Source of the DNA: Pseudomonadota bacterium
Lineage (GTDB): Bacteria > Myxococcota > JACRCW01 > JAFGSX01
NCBI GenBank assembly: GCA_043821645.1
Contig: JBDRCO010000016.1
Span: forward strand, 1-14,141
DNA length: 14,141 bases
Reading direction: 5' to 3'
Both the position numbers and the translations under genes were made by a program. The notes beneath the pieces are model-generated. The model did not search any database. It worked only from the letters and a program-made list of their open reading frames with translations, and was not told where the DNA came from. Position 1 is the first letter of the stretch. Every line of letters begins with the position of its first letter. Below are positions 224 through 11,492 of this stretch, in pieces.

Positions 224-295
224 GCTTTCCAGGGGGCGTCGGCCGCCCCCTCGCGTCGCCGGCACAGGTCCGACGACGGTTCACCCCGGCAGCAG
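224..295 (-). mobile_element. 72-nt double-hairpin mini-insertion E3 (absent from transposase copy B)
   Basis: Copy B reads aag aga aaa tgg gcc gac ggc. Copy A has 72 extra nt between aag and cgg gac gac ggc. Stems are CGTCGTCGG/CCGGCGACG and AGGGGGCG/CGCCCCCT. GCTTTC is repeated at 224-229 and 295-300. Confidence 0.8.
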
Positions 296-391
296 CTTTC
301 TCTTCAGCCGGAGCAGGAGCTCGTCGTCACCGAGCCAGCGCAGGCGGTGATTGGCGAGCGGGGGGCGGAGCACGTAGCGGCACAGCTCCGA

Positions 392-463
392 TGTTGTGAA
401 GGGGGCGTCGGCCGCCCCCTCTGCCGACGGGCGCAGGTCCCGTCGACATTCACCCTGGCAGCA
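392..463 (-). mobile_element. ~72-nt double-hairpin mini-insertion E2 in transposase copy A
   Basis: TGCTGCCAGGGTGAA-TGTCGACGGG/CCCGTCGGCA-G-AGGGGGCG/CGCCCCCT-TCACAACA. It lies between the GFSLHAARR block and ELCRY and shifts the frame. The adjacent AT-rich stretch 464-476 may belong to it. Confidence 0.8.
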
Positions 464-515
464 CTATTTTTGTTTGCTCGGGCCGGGCCCTTCTCGCGGC
501 GTGCAGGGAGAAGCC

Positions 516-585
516 TGCTGGTTGGGTGAGCTTGTCGGGACCCGTGCCCGGCAAGCGAGGGCCTGCCCGACAGGCCCTGACAACA
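516..585 (+). mobile_element. 70-nt double-hairpin mini-insertion E1, inserted antisense to transposase copy A
   Basis: TGCTGGTTGGGTGA-GCTTGTCGGG/CCCGGCAAGC-G-AGGGCCTG/CAGGCCCT-GACAACA. Removing 516-585 restores the frame (LCFAL-GFSLHAA). Confidence 0.8.
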
Positions 586-1342
586 CAGCGCAAAGCACAG
601 ATCGCCGGTGCGCTGACCTGCGGTGGGGTCGGAGAGGACCCTGCGGATGCGGCGGCCCGCCCGTTCACCCGTCGCCGCGATCCCCTGCACGCTGGCCTGG
701 AGCAGGCCGGCCAGCACCGGTTCCTCCTCCGACAAGCGGTCCGGAGTGTCCACGCCGTCGTCGAGGACCCCGCGCCGCACCAGCAGCCGGATCACCCGGC
801 CGGCGATGACCTCGACCAGCCGCTTGATCTCGCCATCCGACGGCGGTGGTGTCTCCACGAACAGCAAAGGCTCGCCCATGCCGTCGCCGACGTAAACGCC
901 GTCGAGCAGCAGCGAGTGGAAGTGCGGGGCAAGCCTCAGGTCCGAGTTGGCGCGCTGGATCACGGTGATGGAGCCGGTGCGGCCGCTGGCGTGCCCCATT
1001 GTCCGTGCGCGCCGCCGGTACCATACCGACACCGCTCGCAGGAAGACCGCCAGCACGTCGGAGCAGAGCGCGCCGTCATAAGCCAGCGTGTAGCGCGTCG
1101 CCGACGAACCCACCTGTCGGTTTCCCCAGGCTCACGCGTTGACTGAGAGAACGCGAAGGTGAAAGTTCTCGGCGATTGACCGCTCAGGCGCGCTGGCTGC
1201 CCGGCGTATGGGGATTCGTCTGACACCTTTTCTTGAGCACGCGCAGCCGCTGTGTGCATCCAGACCACGCGGGCACTCTACGCCTCGCCACGGCCCGTGG
1301 CAAAAGGCCCGCGCATGCCTGGCGCGCGAAAGCGCCCGCCGT

Positions 1343-4300
1343 TCACGGCACCGCGAGCGACCACAGCTCGGTTCCGATCTCCCCGTCATCGGCAAAGAAG
1401 TAGAGCCGGTCGCCGAGGACGATCGGCCACGACGGCGAGGCGCTCGCGCTGCCTGGCGCCAGGTCGTAAACGAGGTGACGGCTGTCGAGATCTTCGTCGA
1501 GGATCCACAGCTCCTGCCCGTGCAGTGCGTCGGAATCGGCGAACACCTGGCGCCCCTGGAAACCGGCGCGGTCGCCCATGGTCGTGGTGAAGAGGGGGAC
1601 CGGCCCGTCGGTCGCCTCGTCGTAGCGCCACAGCGTCCGGATCGCATTCGAGTCGAGGGCGACGAAGTAGACGCGCGGTCCGATCGCAAAGGCGCTCAAC
1701 AGATCGTCGAAGTTGAGCGTCGTCGTCAACCGCGTGCCAGGCTCGCTGCCGTCGGAGCGCCAGATCCGGCTTCCTGGATACACCCGGCCGAGCACCAGCA
1801 CCTCGGCTCCGAGACCGAGGATGCTGGTGGAGTTCAGCAGGGTGCTGAGTGTGGCGATGCGCCCCGTGCCCGTGCCCGAGCCATCGCTGCGCCACAGATC
1901 GCCGCCGGCGATGAACCACAGCTGGCCGTCGATGAGCGACAGCGCGCTGATGCTGCGCGCCGCGGACCCGGCCGCCGTCTCGGCGACCAGCCGCGTGCCT
2001 GGCACGGTGCCGTCGGTGGCGTACAGCTCGTAGCCGGTCGCCGCGGTGTAGCCGTTGAAGAAGGCCTCGTCGCCGAGCGCGACGACGTCGCCGAGCACCG
2101 GGAGGAGCGCGTAGGTCCCCGGCTCGGTGCCATCGGAGCGCCACAGGGTGGCGCCCACCGCAACGTAGAGCAGGCCGTTGATGGACCGCAGCCTGGAGAG
2201 GCTGCTTCCGCCCGACCCCGCGGTGACGTCCTTGACCATGGCGGTGCCGCTCGTCGAGCCATCGCTCGACCACAGCTCGCTGCCGTGAACTCCGTCGTCG
2301 CCGATGAAGAACAAGGTCCCGCTCACGTCGGTCAGCCCCGAGAGCGAGACAAAGGGCAGGATCGGCACCGTGCCGGTCGCCGTGCCGTCGCTGCGCCACA
2401 GCGCGGGCCCGACCAGGCCGTCGCTGGCCGCGAAGAAGAGGGAGCCTCCGCTCACCGCCGCGCCCGTCGGGCTGCAGCCCTGCTCGGCGATGTTGATATC
2501 GACGAGCAGGTGCGTGCCCTGGCTCGTGGCGTCGCTGATCCACAGTTCCTTGCCATGAACCGAGTCGAGATGGGCGAGGAACAGGGTGGCGCTGCTGGCG
2601 CCGAGCAGTGTCGGCGCCGTGCCCATGGCGACGACTTGGGTGGCGTCGCTGAGATCCGGGTGCAGTCGCCACAGCCCCAGGCCGCTGCCCGCGGTCGCCA
2701 CGACGTAGCGGTCGCCCTGCCACTGGACAGGCCTCGACGGGTTGGAGTTGCCGGCGCCGGCCTCGATGTTCTTGACCACGTGCGTGCCGCTTACCGTGCC
2801 GTCGCTGGTCCACAGCTCGGTCCCGGTCGCGACCATATTGGCCGAGAAGAGCAGGTTCGACCCGTCGCTGTGGAGCCACGGCATGCCGCTGAACGTCGCG
2901 GAGACGAGCGAATACGTCCCGTCGACCGTGCCGTCGCTGCGATAGAGGTAGAACCCGGACACGCTCGGGCTGGCGAAGAAGAAGACCAGGCCGCCCACGC
3001 TGACAGGCCCGGCCCAGTTCTTGCCGGTGGGGGTATCGGGCAAGAGCTGCAGCAGGCCGCCAGACGTTCCGTCGGTGCGCCACAGGCCGTTGAAGTTGAA
3101 CCCGTTGTAGGTGAAGAAGAGGTGGCTGTCGGTGGCGGCGAGATTGCGCGCCTCATGGATGTCCTGCTGGACGACCACGCGCGTGCCTGCGGGCGTGCCG
3201 TCGGTGCAGTACACGTGGGTCGAGGTGAAGCACAGCTCGTTCTTGAAGACTGCCGTCGACCATCCTCCGAAGCGGTAGATCGACGCCACGGCGGTCGTGC
3301 CAACCACCGTGCCGTCGCTTGTCCAGAGCTCGCGCCCCATCCACGAGGTGTGCGTGAAGTAGACACGGTCGCCAAATCCGACGGCCGAGCTCAGATCGCC
3401 GGCCTCCGGGCCAGCGGTGAAGTCGCCGAGCATGAAGGTTCCAGCCGTGGAGCCATCGCTGCGCCACAGCTCGCGGCCGTGCTCGCAGTCGTCGGCGAGA
3501 AAATACGCGATACCCCGGTGCACCGCGAAGCCGTAGGGCCAGGAGCCGACGGCGCCGGGGCAGATGTCGCGCACGAGCCGGGTCCCGGCCTCGGTGCCGT
3601 CGCTGACCCACAGCTCGCGGCCTATCCCCTTGCTGCTCGCTCCGAACAGCAGCCAGTCGCCGACGACCACCCCACCCGGATCGGACCCGACGGCCGCAGG
3701 CTGGACGTTGAGGTTCTTGACCAGCTCGACCGAGGGCCAGGCGCTGCAGGTGTCGGTGTCTTGCCAGTGTCCCAGGACGCAGCGACGGGTCATGCGGCCA
3801 TCGAAGCCGCAGCGCAGATCGCCGTCGGCGACGGTGCCGTCGACGCAGACATCCGGGTCATCGCAGAGCGCCGAGTCCTGCCAGAAGCCGTTCACGCAGT
3901 CCTGGATCAGGTGGCCGCGGTCGTTGAGCCCGCACCCGGTCGTTCCAACCCGCGAGCCGCTGTCACCGCACCAGCCCGCGAGGTCGCCGGGCGCAGCGTC
4001 GGGCGCGCTCGCGCTGTCGGCTGCGCTCGCGGCGTCGGACGCGGTCCCGCCCGCATCCGCCGACGGCGCGTCGTGCACACTGGCCTCGAGAGCCCCGGCG
4101 TCGGCCGGCGACACCGCGTCGAAAGGCGACACCACGTCGGCCGTCGACATGGCATCGGGAGACGACACGGCGTCGGCAGACGACAGCACGTCCGCCGTCG
4201 CGGAGTCCAGGGTCGCGCCATCGCCTGGCACCCAGGCGTCGATCAAGGCCGCGTCCGCTCCGTCCGAGGCTGCCGCGTCCAGCGAGGTCGCCCCATCCTG

Positions 4301-4567
4301 CGCCGTCGCATCCGCGGCGACGGTGTCGGCGTTCGACGCGTCCAGGTCCTCGACGTCAGCGGCCGCGCCGTCGGCCGCCACCGCGTCGGGGGTCGAGCCG
4401 TCGGCGATCGCGGCATCCTGTGCCGCGGCATCGGCGGGCTGAGGAGACGTGGCGTCGCGGCCCGTGCGTCCGGGATCGCAGGACCCGCAACCTTGCAGGA
4501 TCAGGACGCAGGCGGCGATGCCGGATCCCCACGCCGCCGGTCTGCGAACGTCTGCGCCGCTCTGCAT
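1343..4567 (-). CDS. ELWxxDGT-repeat lipoprotein, 1074 aa: signal peptide II, Asp/Ala-rich linker, two Cys-rich repeats, many ELWxSDGT repeats
   Basis: Lipobox-like VLILQG-C at Cys27; repeated GRELWVSDGT, GRELWRSDGS, GTELWTSDGT and GSELWSSDGS; purine-rich GAAGGGGG upstream of the ATG. Confidence 0.92.
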   Translation of the reverse strand: MQSGADVRRPAAWGSGIAACVLILQGCGSCDPGRTGRDATSPQPADAAAQDAAIADGSTPDAVAADGAAADVEDLDASNADTVAADATAQDGATSLDAAASDGADAALIDAWVPGDGATLDSATADVLSSADAVSSPDAMSTADVVSPFDAVSPADAGALEASVHDAPSADAGGTASDAASAADSASAPDAAPGDLAGWCGDSGSRVGTTGCGLNDRGHLIQDCVNGFWQDSALCDDPDVCVDGTVADGDLRCGFDGRMTRRCVLGHWQDTDTCSAWPSVELVKNLNVQPAAVGSDPGGVVVGDWLLFGASSKGIGRELWVSDGTEAGTRLVRDICPGAVGSWPYGFAVHRGIAYFLADDCEHGRELWRSDGSTAGTFMLGDFTAGPEAGDLSSAVGFGDRVYFTHTSWMGRELWTSDGTVVGTTAVASIYRFGGWSTAVFKNELCFTSTHVYCTDGTPAGTRVVVQQDIHEARNLAATDSHLFFTYNGFNFNGLWRTDGTSGGLLQLLPDTPTGKNWAGPVSVGGLVFFFASPSVSGFYLYRSDGTVDGTYSLVSATFSGMPWLHSDGSNLLFSANMVATGTELWTSDGTVSGTHVVKNIEAGAGNSNPSRPVQWQGDRYVVATAGSGLGLWRLHPDLSDATQVVAMGTAPTLLGASSATLFLAHLDSVHGKELWISDATSQGTHLLVDINIAEQGCSPTGAAVSGGSLFFAASDGLVGPALWRSDGTATGTVPILPFVSLSGLTDVSGTLFFIGDDGVHGSELWSSDGSTSGTAMVKDVTAGSGGSSLSRLRSINGLLYVAVGATLWRSDGTEPGTYALLPVLGDVVALGDEAFFNGYTAATGYELYATDGTVPGTRLVAETAAGSAARSISALSLIDGQLWFIAGGDLWRSDGSGTGTGRIATLSTLLNSTSILGLGAEVLVLGRVYPGSRIWRSDGSEPGTRLTTTLNFDDLLSAFAIGPRVYFVALDSNAIRTLWRYDEATDGPVPLFTTTMGDRAGFQGRQVFADSDALHGQELWILDEDLDSRHLVYDLAPGSASASPSWPIVLGDRLYFFADDGEIGTELWSLAVP

Positions 4568-4709
4568 CGGTGTGCCCCCTTCAGGAAGGATCAGGTGTCT
4601 ATCCCAGACTGATGCGGGCGATGGGGGCCGTAGGAAACACCAAGTGCCTCCCCATCGCCAACCTCGGGTACCAGCTCCTCGTGGCCCGTCTCCAAATCCA
4701 TCGCCATCG

Positions 4710-4718
4710 ATTTTAGCA
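4710..4718 (-). promoter_or_regulatory. Putative extended -10 promoter element (TGCTAAAAT) for the ELWxxDGT gene
   Basis: TGn-TAAAAT on the minus strand about 140 nt upstream of the start codon, in a very GC-rich background. Confidence 0.4.
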
Positions 4719-5147
4719 CGGCCTCCGAACCAGCGGAAACGCCGCCAGCGCGCGGCCCGAGCAAACGGGTACCTTGCCGCCCTGGCTCGGCGGCGCAGAT
4801 GTGGTAGAAGGTGACGTCGTCAGGTCGTCAGCAGAGCTCGAACGCGAGCTCGGCCTGAGGAGGCGCTCTCGCCGTATCCGGGTCCGCGATATGTCATGTG
4901 TCGGGTCCCGCCCCCCTCTTCCTCTTTCACCCTCACCAGCGATAGGCTGGCCCTCGAGCTCGATGCTTGCACGGGCAGCTGTCTGGAGGCGCCCCGGCTT
5001 CGCTCGGCCGCGCCTGTTCCCCGAGAGGCGCCAGACAGGTACACCTCCGGCGAGGCGTCCGCAGCAAGGTGCGTCTAGGCAGGCGCCTGGCCGGCTGGAG
5101 ACCGAGCCGGCGAGCGCCCGCGGACATCGAACCGGACGAGGTGCACG

Positions 5148-5904: not shown

Positions 5905-6001
<97 letters not shown>

Positions 6002-10205: not shown

Positions 10206-10717
10206 GGGAGCTGCTCCTGCTCGTTTGACATCGCGGGTGGTCCGGCCTTGAACCCATCATTCTGACATTGCCGGGTGGTCTTGACATCTCGGACGTCGTG
10301 CATTCATCGCTCGTCTTGACGGGCGCAGGTGCGGGCGACCTCGCCTCCCTGGGAACGGCCTGCGGCGGTTTTGAGGCTTCTGGAGTGGTGGAGTAATGCC
10401 ACATCATATCAACATGCGGACTGAGGGCGAGGTCGCTGGCCGCAACCGCACATCACGCCAAAAACCGATCCATGGTGGGGAGCCCGGTGGGGGGCGTCTG
10501 GGTGACGTCGGTTGATGGGGTCGCGCGTCTGGCGGTTCTTGATTGGACGAAGGTCCGGTGCTCCTCCCCTGCTGCTCTACCTCGCGTCGCGGGCACCTGC
10601 GAGACGCTCAGCACATGCCCCGGATGTCCTGCTCCAGCTCACGCCAGCCGCCGCATCCGCAAGATCCTGTCCGACCCGGCGCCGGGCCAGCGCACCGGTG
10701 AGCTGTGTTTCGCCCGG

Positions 10718-10787
10718 TGTTGTCAGGGCCTGTCGGGCAGGCCCTCGCTTGCCGGGCACGGGTCCCGACAAGCTCACCCAACCAGCA
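10718..10787 (-). mobile_element. 70-nt mini-insertion E1' (identical to E1)
   Basis: Exact reverse complement of 516-585, at the same position in the transposase. Confidence 0.8.
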
Positions 10788-10839
10788 GGCTTCTTCCTGC
10801 ACGCCGCGAGAAGGGTCCGCCCGGAGCAAACAAAAATAG

Positions 10840-10913
10840 TGCTGCCAGGGTGAATGTCGACGGGACCTGCGCCCGTCGGCAAAGGGGGCGGCCGACGCCC
10901 CCTTGGAGCAACA
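10840..10913 (+). mobile_element. ~74-nt mini-insertion E2' (near-identical to E2)
   Basis: Matches 392-463 apart from one substitution between the hairpins and a different 3' tail (GGAGCAACA vs CACAACA). Confidence 0.8.
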
Positions 10914-11492
10914 CCAGGAGCTGTGCCGCTACGTCCTGCGACCTCCTCTTGCCAACCACCGACTGCGCTGGCTGGGTGACGACGAACTCCTGCTCGCGTT
11001 GAAGAGAAAATGGGCCGACGGCACCACGCACATCGTGCTCAGCCCGTCGGAGCTCCTGGCTCGACTCGCCGCCCTGGTGCCGCCCAAGGGATTCAACCTC
11101 ACGCGCTACCACGGCTGCCTGGCGCCGCGCTCGAGCGTGCGAGATCTCATCGTTCCCGCGCCGTCCGCACCCGACGAGCCCGCCCAACTCGACGACGACC
11201 CCGAAAAGTCCCCGAAGGGGGACCGCGTTCCCGAGCCACCCGTCGCCGTCCCGGCGCGCCCGCGCAGGATCCCCTGGGCCGAGCTACCACGGAGAGTGTG
11301 CCGCGGCACTCGCGATGGCATCTGGCAGGCGCAGACTCGTCTGCTCGGCCCTTGCAAGCACGCGGCGCGGCCTGCCAACCTGAAACACGACATACACGTG
11401 GGTCGCAGGCAGACCCGGGGCAGGGCAGGCTGAGCCCCGACCGGTCCAGGCCACCACGACCACCCGGGTGCCCACCACAGGGAGCGAGACAG

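Follow-up and report, generated by a model that had tools for sequence, protein, structure and literature searches.

The locus considered here raises the question of how nearly identical short inserts came to lie at the same sites in two copies of a transposase gene that are themselves well diverged. The window, by which we mean the whole 14,141-nt contig (C16), belongs to a 7.07-Mb draft genome in 140 contigs, a metagenome-assembled bin with 3.95% contamination and 70% G+C from an uncultured, myxobacterium-like lineage. Within it two mutually matching stretches lie in inverted orientation, copy A from 1 to ~1131 on the minus strand and copy B from 10647 to ~11304 on the plus strand, and copy A is cut by the contig start (i.e., the contig begins inside it). 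Both copies carry the inserts E1 and E2, designated E1' and E2' in copy A. The best reading we can give, which rests on sequence comparison, is that the apparent youth of the inserts relative to their surroundings probably reflects an exchange of pieces between the transposase copies by recombination, and the inserts themselves belong to a dispersed family of small hairpin repeats. The features discussed below are collected in Table 1.

The window also holds other features of some interest in their own right. The segment bracketed by the two inverted transposase relics (9.5 kb) contains a gene for the selenocysteine tRNA. A long open frame at 1208–4612, comprising about ten diverged repeats of 126–144 nt or multiples of this length, is beta-propeller-like, and an 18-nt tandem repeat occupies 4099–4188 in the same region. 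The third IS91 remnant of the window (Table 1) has further copies on C128, C112 and C15.

Table 1. Features of the window and in-frame copies of the repeat elsewhere in the genome. Positions without a contig prefix are those of the window; R1 is the covariance model of the repeat described in the text.
Feature	Position	Strand	Differences, copy A vs. copy B	Other evidence
Copy A, 3' part, cut by contig end	1-225	(-)		similarity to transposase
E3, 72 nt, copy A only	226-297	(-)		R1 match, 75.2 bits
E2' in copy A	395-466	(-)		R1 match, 81.7 bits
E1' in copy A	516-585	(+)		R1 match 513-583 (+), 69.3 bits; 100% identical to E1
Copy A before E1', with HUH motif HFHSLLLDG	586-1131	(-)		matches L068 residues 125-296; ~124 N-terminal residues missing
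Third IS91 remnant: last transposase codons and ~200 nt of element 3' end	4623-4874	(-)		91% identical over 252 nt to C77:6925-7176
Selenocysteine tRNA gene	5909-6001	(-)		Rfam, 78.6 bits
Copy B before E1	10647-10717	(+)	15/71	transposase homology starts here, at ~residue 270 of the 492-aa relative L068
E1	10718-10787	(-), reverse relative to gene	0/70	R1 match 10720-10790 (-), 69.3 bits
Transposase spacer between E1 and E2, 49 nt, GFFLHAARRVRPEQTK	10788-10836	(+)	4/49
E2	10837-10908	(+), forward		R1 match, 84.6 bits
E2 core	10837-10905 vs. 399-466		1/68, at 10882
Tail of 10-12 nt after E2			8/10 aligned bases and a 3-nt gap
Copy B, remainder, catalytic ELCRY region to RIPWAEL	10909-11304	(+)		matches L068 residues 311-436
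Gene segment	10918-11012		15/95
Gene segment	11013-11140		9/128
Repeat in dnaX (domain III)	C43:140782-140850 (L151)	reverse		host by Pfam
Repeat in valS (anticodon-binding domain)	C133:2834-2902 (L152)	reverse		host by Pfam
Repeat in hsdM (type I methylase)	C25:1309-1378 (L153)	reverse		host by Pfam

A previous sequence-only reading of this DNA had reported that E1 and E1' agree at 70 of 70 positions, that E2 and E2' differ at one internal base and in a divergent tail, that 7 of the 33 nt directly before E1 differ, and that the 31 codons from ELCRY to KRK carry 12 synonymous and 1 non-synonymous differences. All of these counts were reproduced here, with 13 codons differing in the last case (the single replacement being A to R; pS 0.48, pN 0.03). 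The contrast it drew between the inserts and the host gene is not due to chance, as the inserts differ at 1 of 138 positions and the gene segments at 43 of 343 (Fisher p = 5e-6), and the block made up of E1, the spacer and E2 differs at 5 of 187 positions compared with 30 of 166 in the adjoining flanks (p = 1e-6). The statement that the genes diverged synonymously stands for the 31 chosen codons but is weaker elsewhere, with 6 of the 23 residues before E1 differing and pN close to pS in the segment 11011–11160. Taken over the whole comparison, third codon positions account for 26 of the 43 gene differences and dN/dS is 0.22. The logic by which this divergence was held to predate the inserts is sound, since third-position-biased divergence must date from working genes and the inserts break the frame: the 70 nt of E1 cause a +1 shift, and E2 adds 73 nt in copy B and 70 nt in copy A, with the gene frame entering a TGA within it. 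What had escaped notice is the third insert, E3 of copy A, which brings an in-frame TGA, and the reverse orientation of E1. Because Nei-Gojobori pS takes values of 0.46, 0.16, 0.48 and 0.07 in four successive gene segments, and pN values of 0.12, 0.06, 0.03 and 0.07, segments of very different age alternate along the two copies.

The host gene is, judged from its protein profile, an IS91-family (Y2_Tnp) transposase. Matches to the Pfam family Y2_Tnp (PF04986) exceed the curated cut-off in the paralogs C77 (69.5 bits) and C71 (61.5 bits) as well as in copy B (60.7 bits, at 10882–11130) and copy A (49.9 bits), and the host gene resembles IS91/ISCR elements in having this domain together with an HUH motif and an RY-type tyrosine region. 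All five Y2_Tnp matches in the genome are partial, and no intact IS91-type transposase copy was found there; the copies thus differ from IS91/ISCR elements in being fragments with up to three foreign hairpin repeats each. Intact relatives of 492–507 aa exist in metagenomic and genome contigs (L068 and L066). When aligned to the 492-aa relative L068, copy A covers residues 125–416 and copy B residues 270–436, so that the RY region is found in both, the HUH motif is present in copy A and absent from copy B, and the N-terminal zinc-finger region is missing from both. A complete protein, which would combine the N-terminal zinc-binding region with the HUH motif and the catalytic tyrosine region, is thus encoded by neither copy. 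As truncated fragments that also hold the frame-breaking E1 and E2 and, in copy A, the stop of E3, the two copies are dead whatever the inserts do, being differently 5'-truncated relics. Of other insertion sequence families the genome holds 4 matches to DDE_Tnp_1 and 3 to rve, each within a long open frame, which leaves no comparable set of relics for testing whether the repeat is enriched in relics of insertion sequences.

All three inserts, E1, E2 and E3, belong to a single family of dispersed 72-nt repeats with two hairpins, E1 being the reverse complement of the same element as E2 and E3. E2-like sequences were found on many contigs by BLAST and profile search. In an alignment of 39 copies the repeat consists of a conserved 5' box of ~17 nt followed by two distinct GC-rich hairpins with conserved loops; 15 of the 17 predicted base pairs show compensatory changes, single copies fold like the alignment consensus, and E1 folds into two hairpins. 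The covariance model built from the repeat alignment, R1, has 104 matches in this genome at E<=0.01, with all five window inserts among them. A search of 41 genomes, with up to 121 candidates scored in each, gave lower bounds of 101 copies for this genome and 88 for G001, a same-family genome from a sister genus and the only sister in the collection searched; among the matches scored, 38 of the other 39 genomes gave none, and G027 gave one weak match. The repeat is thus a lineage-restricted, non-autonomous, REP/RPE-like mobile element with ~100 copies per genome. At gathering thresholds, an Rfam search of the whole window returned only the selenocysteine tRNA, with no family for the inserts. 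Literature searches turned up no account of such a repeat from Myxococcota; for Myxococcus xanthus, a repetitive element was reportedly described in 1991.

Most copies of the repeat are intergenic, and many are clustered. Among 86 profile matches there are 22 pairs of close neighbors (<=150 nt apart), of which 17 are in tandem, 5 are head-to-head and none is tail-to-tail, and the E1/E2 pair is one of the head-to-head cases. Tandem arrays of 2–4 elements spaced by 2–12 nt occur at C36:57477-57782, C96:42903-43115, C23:20404-20543 and C63:32-174, and further head-to-head pairs on C2, C5 and C26. None of the 86 copies lies between divergently transcribed genes, as far as crude GC3-based open reading frame calls can tell. 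The ends of the 39 aligned copies are not mutually complementary when inspected by eye, so the repeat has no terminal inverted repeats and is no MITE. No consistent target duplication was seen by eye at 4 filled versus empty sites, and no common target motif or duplication in about 50 flanks inspected in the same way. The genome has four Y1_Tnp loci, beside which no R1 match above 10 bits was found with filters off, and no R1-like ends were found on the intact IS91 relatives. In one subfamily (C87c to C87e) the first hairpin loop of the GGACCTGCGCC type is replaced by the GGATTCACTCC type, which is complementary to the conserved 5' GGGGTGAAT box; this suggests that an alternative pairing or pseudoknot may form between the GGATTCACTCC-type loop and the box.

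The window copies are not the only IS91-like genes with the repeat. None of the E1, E2 and E3 sites is occupied in the paralogs on C77 and C71, and copy B is also empty at the E3 site. A fourth site, ~25 codons before the stop, holds a near-identical variant in five relics (C77, C5, C112, C139 and C15), in frame with the transposase in those of C5 and C112, and is empty in four copies, of which two are on C71 and one each on C18 and C128. The flanks of this 3'-end site form two haplotypes, one of which is also found in the empty C128 copy, with the empty C18 copy being partly like the other. In the sister genus the site is filled as well, in a remnant in L065/L012. A related metagenomic relic, L111, is filled at this site too (R1 55.8 bits), by a variant that resembles E1 (86%) and elements of G001 (84%) more than it does the 3'-end variant of this genome; at 1142–1201 of L111, a G001-like IS91 relic with an internal deletion has the repeat at the contig end. 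A fifth site lies directly after the HUH motif in a relic of G001 (L161, G001:C43, ~164-235), where the repeat keeps the upstream reading frame but not the downstream one. Among the 82 related loci, 79 have no R1 match at E<=1, and the intact relatives, L066, L067 and L068 included, are empty at all sites.

Outside transposase relics the repeat can be part of a reading frame. Using a crude filter, we found 8 of the 86 copies inside a coding-like open frame; two of these are inserts of copy A and one is a 3'-end relic, and inspection of the other five placed 2 in non-coding leaders and left 3 as true in-frame inserts, in dnaX, valS and hsdM (Table 1). Each adds ~24 residues, always in reverse orientation, and third-position G+C is ~0.9 on both sides. 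The DnaX residues 299–328 and the residues 514–538 of the ValRS frame are absent from the orthologs in G001, G002 and G003, and the hsdM insert was judged solely from Pfam alignment length. The valS gene (L152, ~1640–1700) also has one extra base relative to the G001 ortholog, giving the overlapping frames 550–2862 and 1307–3607, a difference that reflects either an error of assembly or a true frameshift.

To place the repeat among known systems, we compared it to REP-type and Rickettsia-type elements. A typical REP is a short (20–40 nt) single palindrome with a conserved 5' tetranucleotide, the GTAG-type head. The present repeat is about twice that size and has two different hairpins and a conserved 5' box, with no conserved GTAG-type head. 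It also departs from these systems in being absent from the flanks of all four Y1_Tnp genes, where a RAYT gene would have REPs beside it, and in that its inverted pairs are not near-identical doublets. It is like REP, BIME and REPIN sequences (PMC2817692) in its ~100 copies per genome, GC-rich hairpins, location at gene ends rather than promoters, arrays and lineage restriction, and in having neither terminal inverted repeats nor target duplications. Rickettsia palindromic elements (RPE; Ogata et al., 2000) are hairpin repeats that lie between genes and in frame in unrelated housekeeping genes, as summarized in PMC10969869. They resemble the present repeat, which is likewise small and hairpin-forming, has no gene of its own, and is both intergenic and in frame, where it is read as a short peptide loop; the stop-free insertion in the unrelated genes dnaX, valS and hsdM makes this a likeness in behavior. 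They differ in length (~100–150 nt vs. 72 nt) and in how often they occupy genes, 3 of 86 copies of our repeat being in intact genes vs. nearly half for some RPE families. The host is also of a different sort, being of free-living type with a 7-Mb, 70% G+C, myxobacterium-like genome, and many copies stand in tandem arrays. The repeat is best classed as a new family of an already known kind of small hairpin repeat.

The history of the inserts in copies A and B was examined by comparing the two with C77 and C71 over 356 shared columns, of which 26 are quartet-informative. Nine of the 26 sites group A with B, and seven of these nine lie in the spacer or a few bases from the insert ends (10715, 10718, 10796, 10808, 10829, 10832, and 10911, with 10718 possibly an alignment effect). 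Twelve group A with C71 and B with C77, mostly in clusters (six at 10678–10687, with pairs at 10820–10823 and 10947–10950), and five group A with C77 and B with C71, all of them at 11015–11060. Since the sites split 9, 12 and 5 among the groupings, the last two in runs, the four-gamete expectation is violated, and it is violated in blocks. The patches can be followed letter by letter. Between 10678 and 10702 copy B has the C77 letters at 8 of 8 differing sites and copy A has the C71 letters at 6 (10678–10687), and further on copy B is C77-like at 10935–10956 and C71-like at 11015–11060. Over 10918–11010 copy B differs from C77 at ~4 of 93 positions, as compared to 15 of 93 between A and B.

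The spacer between the inserts deserves separate mention, as its four differences had been taken as an argument against a single conversion tract. Three of the four lie within 8 nt, where copy B has the C77 letters at all three positions and copy A the C71 letters at two, and A and B have derived states in common at 10796, 10808, 10829, and 10832, against C77 and C71 and also L067 and L068. The argument is weakened accordingly, and because the spacer differences match paralog letters and the other spacer states are shared, E1, spacer and E2 behave as one young block of ~190 nt. Two further features that do not belong to the element are common to A and B, the loss of one codon where E1 is inserted and identical base changes ahead of E2.

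We consider it probable, with moderate confidence, that ectopic recombination or gene conversion among IS91 paralogs put one insert-bearing block into two mosaic backgrounds. Exchange between these paralogs can be read directly from the sequences and is enough to account for such a placement. Patchy gene conversion was one of three options offered by the sequence-only reading, and it draws support from the haplotype mosaics shared with C77 and C71, the 9/5/12 quartet split, and the spread of pS from 0.07 to 0.48. Several copies of the repeat have landed in a rolling-circle transposase gene of the IS91 family, possibly moved by a single-strand, hairpin-recognizing transposase acting in trans, as suggested by the hairpins, the clustering, and the lack of terminal inverted repeats and target duplications. 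The mostly synonymous differences would have arisen earlier, in donor lineages that were then working genes. The insert-bearing block may then have been copied from one relic into another, or an insert-bearing relic may have been duplicated and its flanks overwritten by insert-free paralogs up to the insert edges. Overwriting of the flanks up to the heterology would explain identity that stops at the element edges, and what may have kept the inserts alike is that no other donor exists for them and that no perfectly identical stretches of the two copies are longer. The 3'-end site repeats the pattern, with its near-identical element in five relics on two flank haplotypes.

Some observations fit this recombination account less well. 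The block ends within 3 nt of the outer border of E1 and exactly at that of E2, and random conversion tracts would not be expected to end at element borders unless the flanks had been overwritten from insert-free donors. On the right side of E2 the adjoining bases, which differ strongly between A and B, match no insert-free paralog, and would rather suggest that two junctions formed separately or that damage followed. Because about half of the A/B differences match no assembled paralog (13 are unique to A and 13 to B over the 356 columns), unsampled or lost donors must be assumed.

The border-to-border identity and the different right junctions of E2 in A and B would be natural if each insert variant had been copied independently into its own target in already diverged copies, in a homing-like manner, by transposition or by repair that the element directs, and without co-conversion of the flanks. 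Filling of the 3'-end site in relics with two flank haplotypes, one also found in an empty copy and the second partly so, points the same way, as do the different variant held by L111 at that site, the presence of the repeat at five or more different sites in IS91-like genes of two genera, and the clustering of elements into 22 neighbor pairs. We nonetheless find independent homing, another of the options first proposed, unlikely. Copies A and B have in common derived changes of the spacer and junctions that are foreign to the element, and both have lost the same codon where E1 is inserted; BLAST of the genome found no other E1 or E2 variant to serve as a source; the ~50 flanks hold no common target motif or duplication; and the intact relatives and other metagenomic loci are overwhelmingly empty. 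The resemblance to homing introns and inteins is only a surface pattern, namely the same insert at the same site in diverged genes, as the repeat is too small, has no ribozyme or endonuclease, has a length unfit for protein splicing, is mainly intergenic, and sits here in dead hosts. That the sites flank catalytic blocks, as homing elements' sites do, was not borne out as an explanation, since the family lies mostly between genes.

A related idea, which we regard as quite unlikely, is that the repeat actively homes between or targets IS91 copies, with a hairpin-recognizing single-strand transposase that prefers single-stranded rolling-circle intermediates of IS91-type elements, or positions beside small palindromes in them, and re-copies a given variant into the same site of paralogs with junctions exactly at the hairpin borders. 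If true, this would explain why five sites in IS91-like genes of two genera are hit, why different variants occupy the 3'-end site, and why the identity islands end at element edges.

Common descent without recombination, in which the inserts predate the split of A and B and were held by selection on sequence or structure while the flanks drifted, seems very unlikely to us. The covarying stems and conserved loops do indicate structural constraint on the family; selection on hairpins would, however, allow compensatory change, and only 0–1 changes are seen in 138 nt. The flank differences are shared haplotypes with four-gamete violations rather than scattered mutations, synonymous divergence is ~7-fold unequal between segments, and a third-position bias in the flanks is unexpected in a gene already broken by inserts.

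It is also conceivable that the draft mis-phased or collapsed repeated variants of the insertion sequence and so produced identical inserts in mosaic flanks, as the genome is a 140-contig bin with some contamination, the contig starts inside copy A, and the identical stretches of 78 nt and ~80 nt could act as graph junctions. We judge such an artifact highly improbable: many of the mosaic patches are 10–25 nt long and thus below usual assembly word sizes, flank-insert junctions of A or B type must exist in the reads for the contig to be built, and contigs from four public DNA runs, which are short and of low depth with none of those listed spanning the region, show no insertions or deletions over it. 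In the same low-depth contigs the search for insert-less junctions, which the sequence-only reading had recommended, yielded a single form, joining 10828 to 10918, which also agrees with the C77 paralog at 16 other letters; none of the runs listed as holding this DNA was on record as RNA. That the gene stayed functional, with its inserts spliced, bypassed, excised or tolerated in the protein, is extremely improbable and largely refuted for A and B, given that this sole insert-less form is the paralog, that E1, E2 and E3 shift or stop the frame, that both copies lack the zinc-finger region and B also the HUH motif, and that a permissive Rfam search of 10650–10960 returned no intron or ribozyme (best E = 0.14, an unrelated family), even though the family is translated in frame in dnaX, valS and hsdM, is in frame at the 3'-end site in C5 and C112, and the overall dN/dS of A and B is low.

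The analysis removes a tempting homing or splicing interpretation of this locus and illustrates that identity islands in diverged multicopy genes can come from recombination between paralogs. A family of 72-nt hairpin repeats that had not been described before, with ~100 copies and limited to one family-level group, is also defined, and dnaX and valS show that its copies can be accommodated in frame by essential genes. The Rickettsia-type case of selfish DNA within coding genes is thereby extended to a genome that is large and GC-rich, from a lineage without sign of an intracellular lifestyle. The result also bears on gene calling in such genomes, for which the R1 covariance model can be used to mask or annotate the element.
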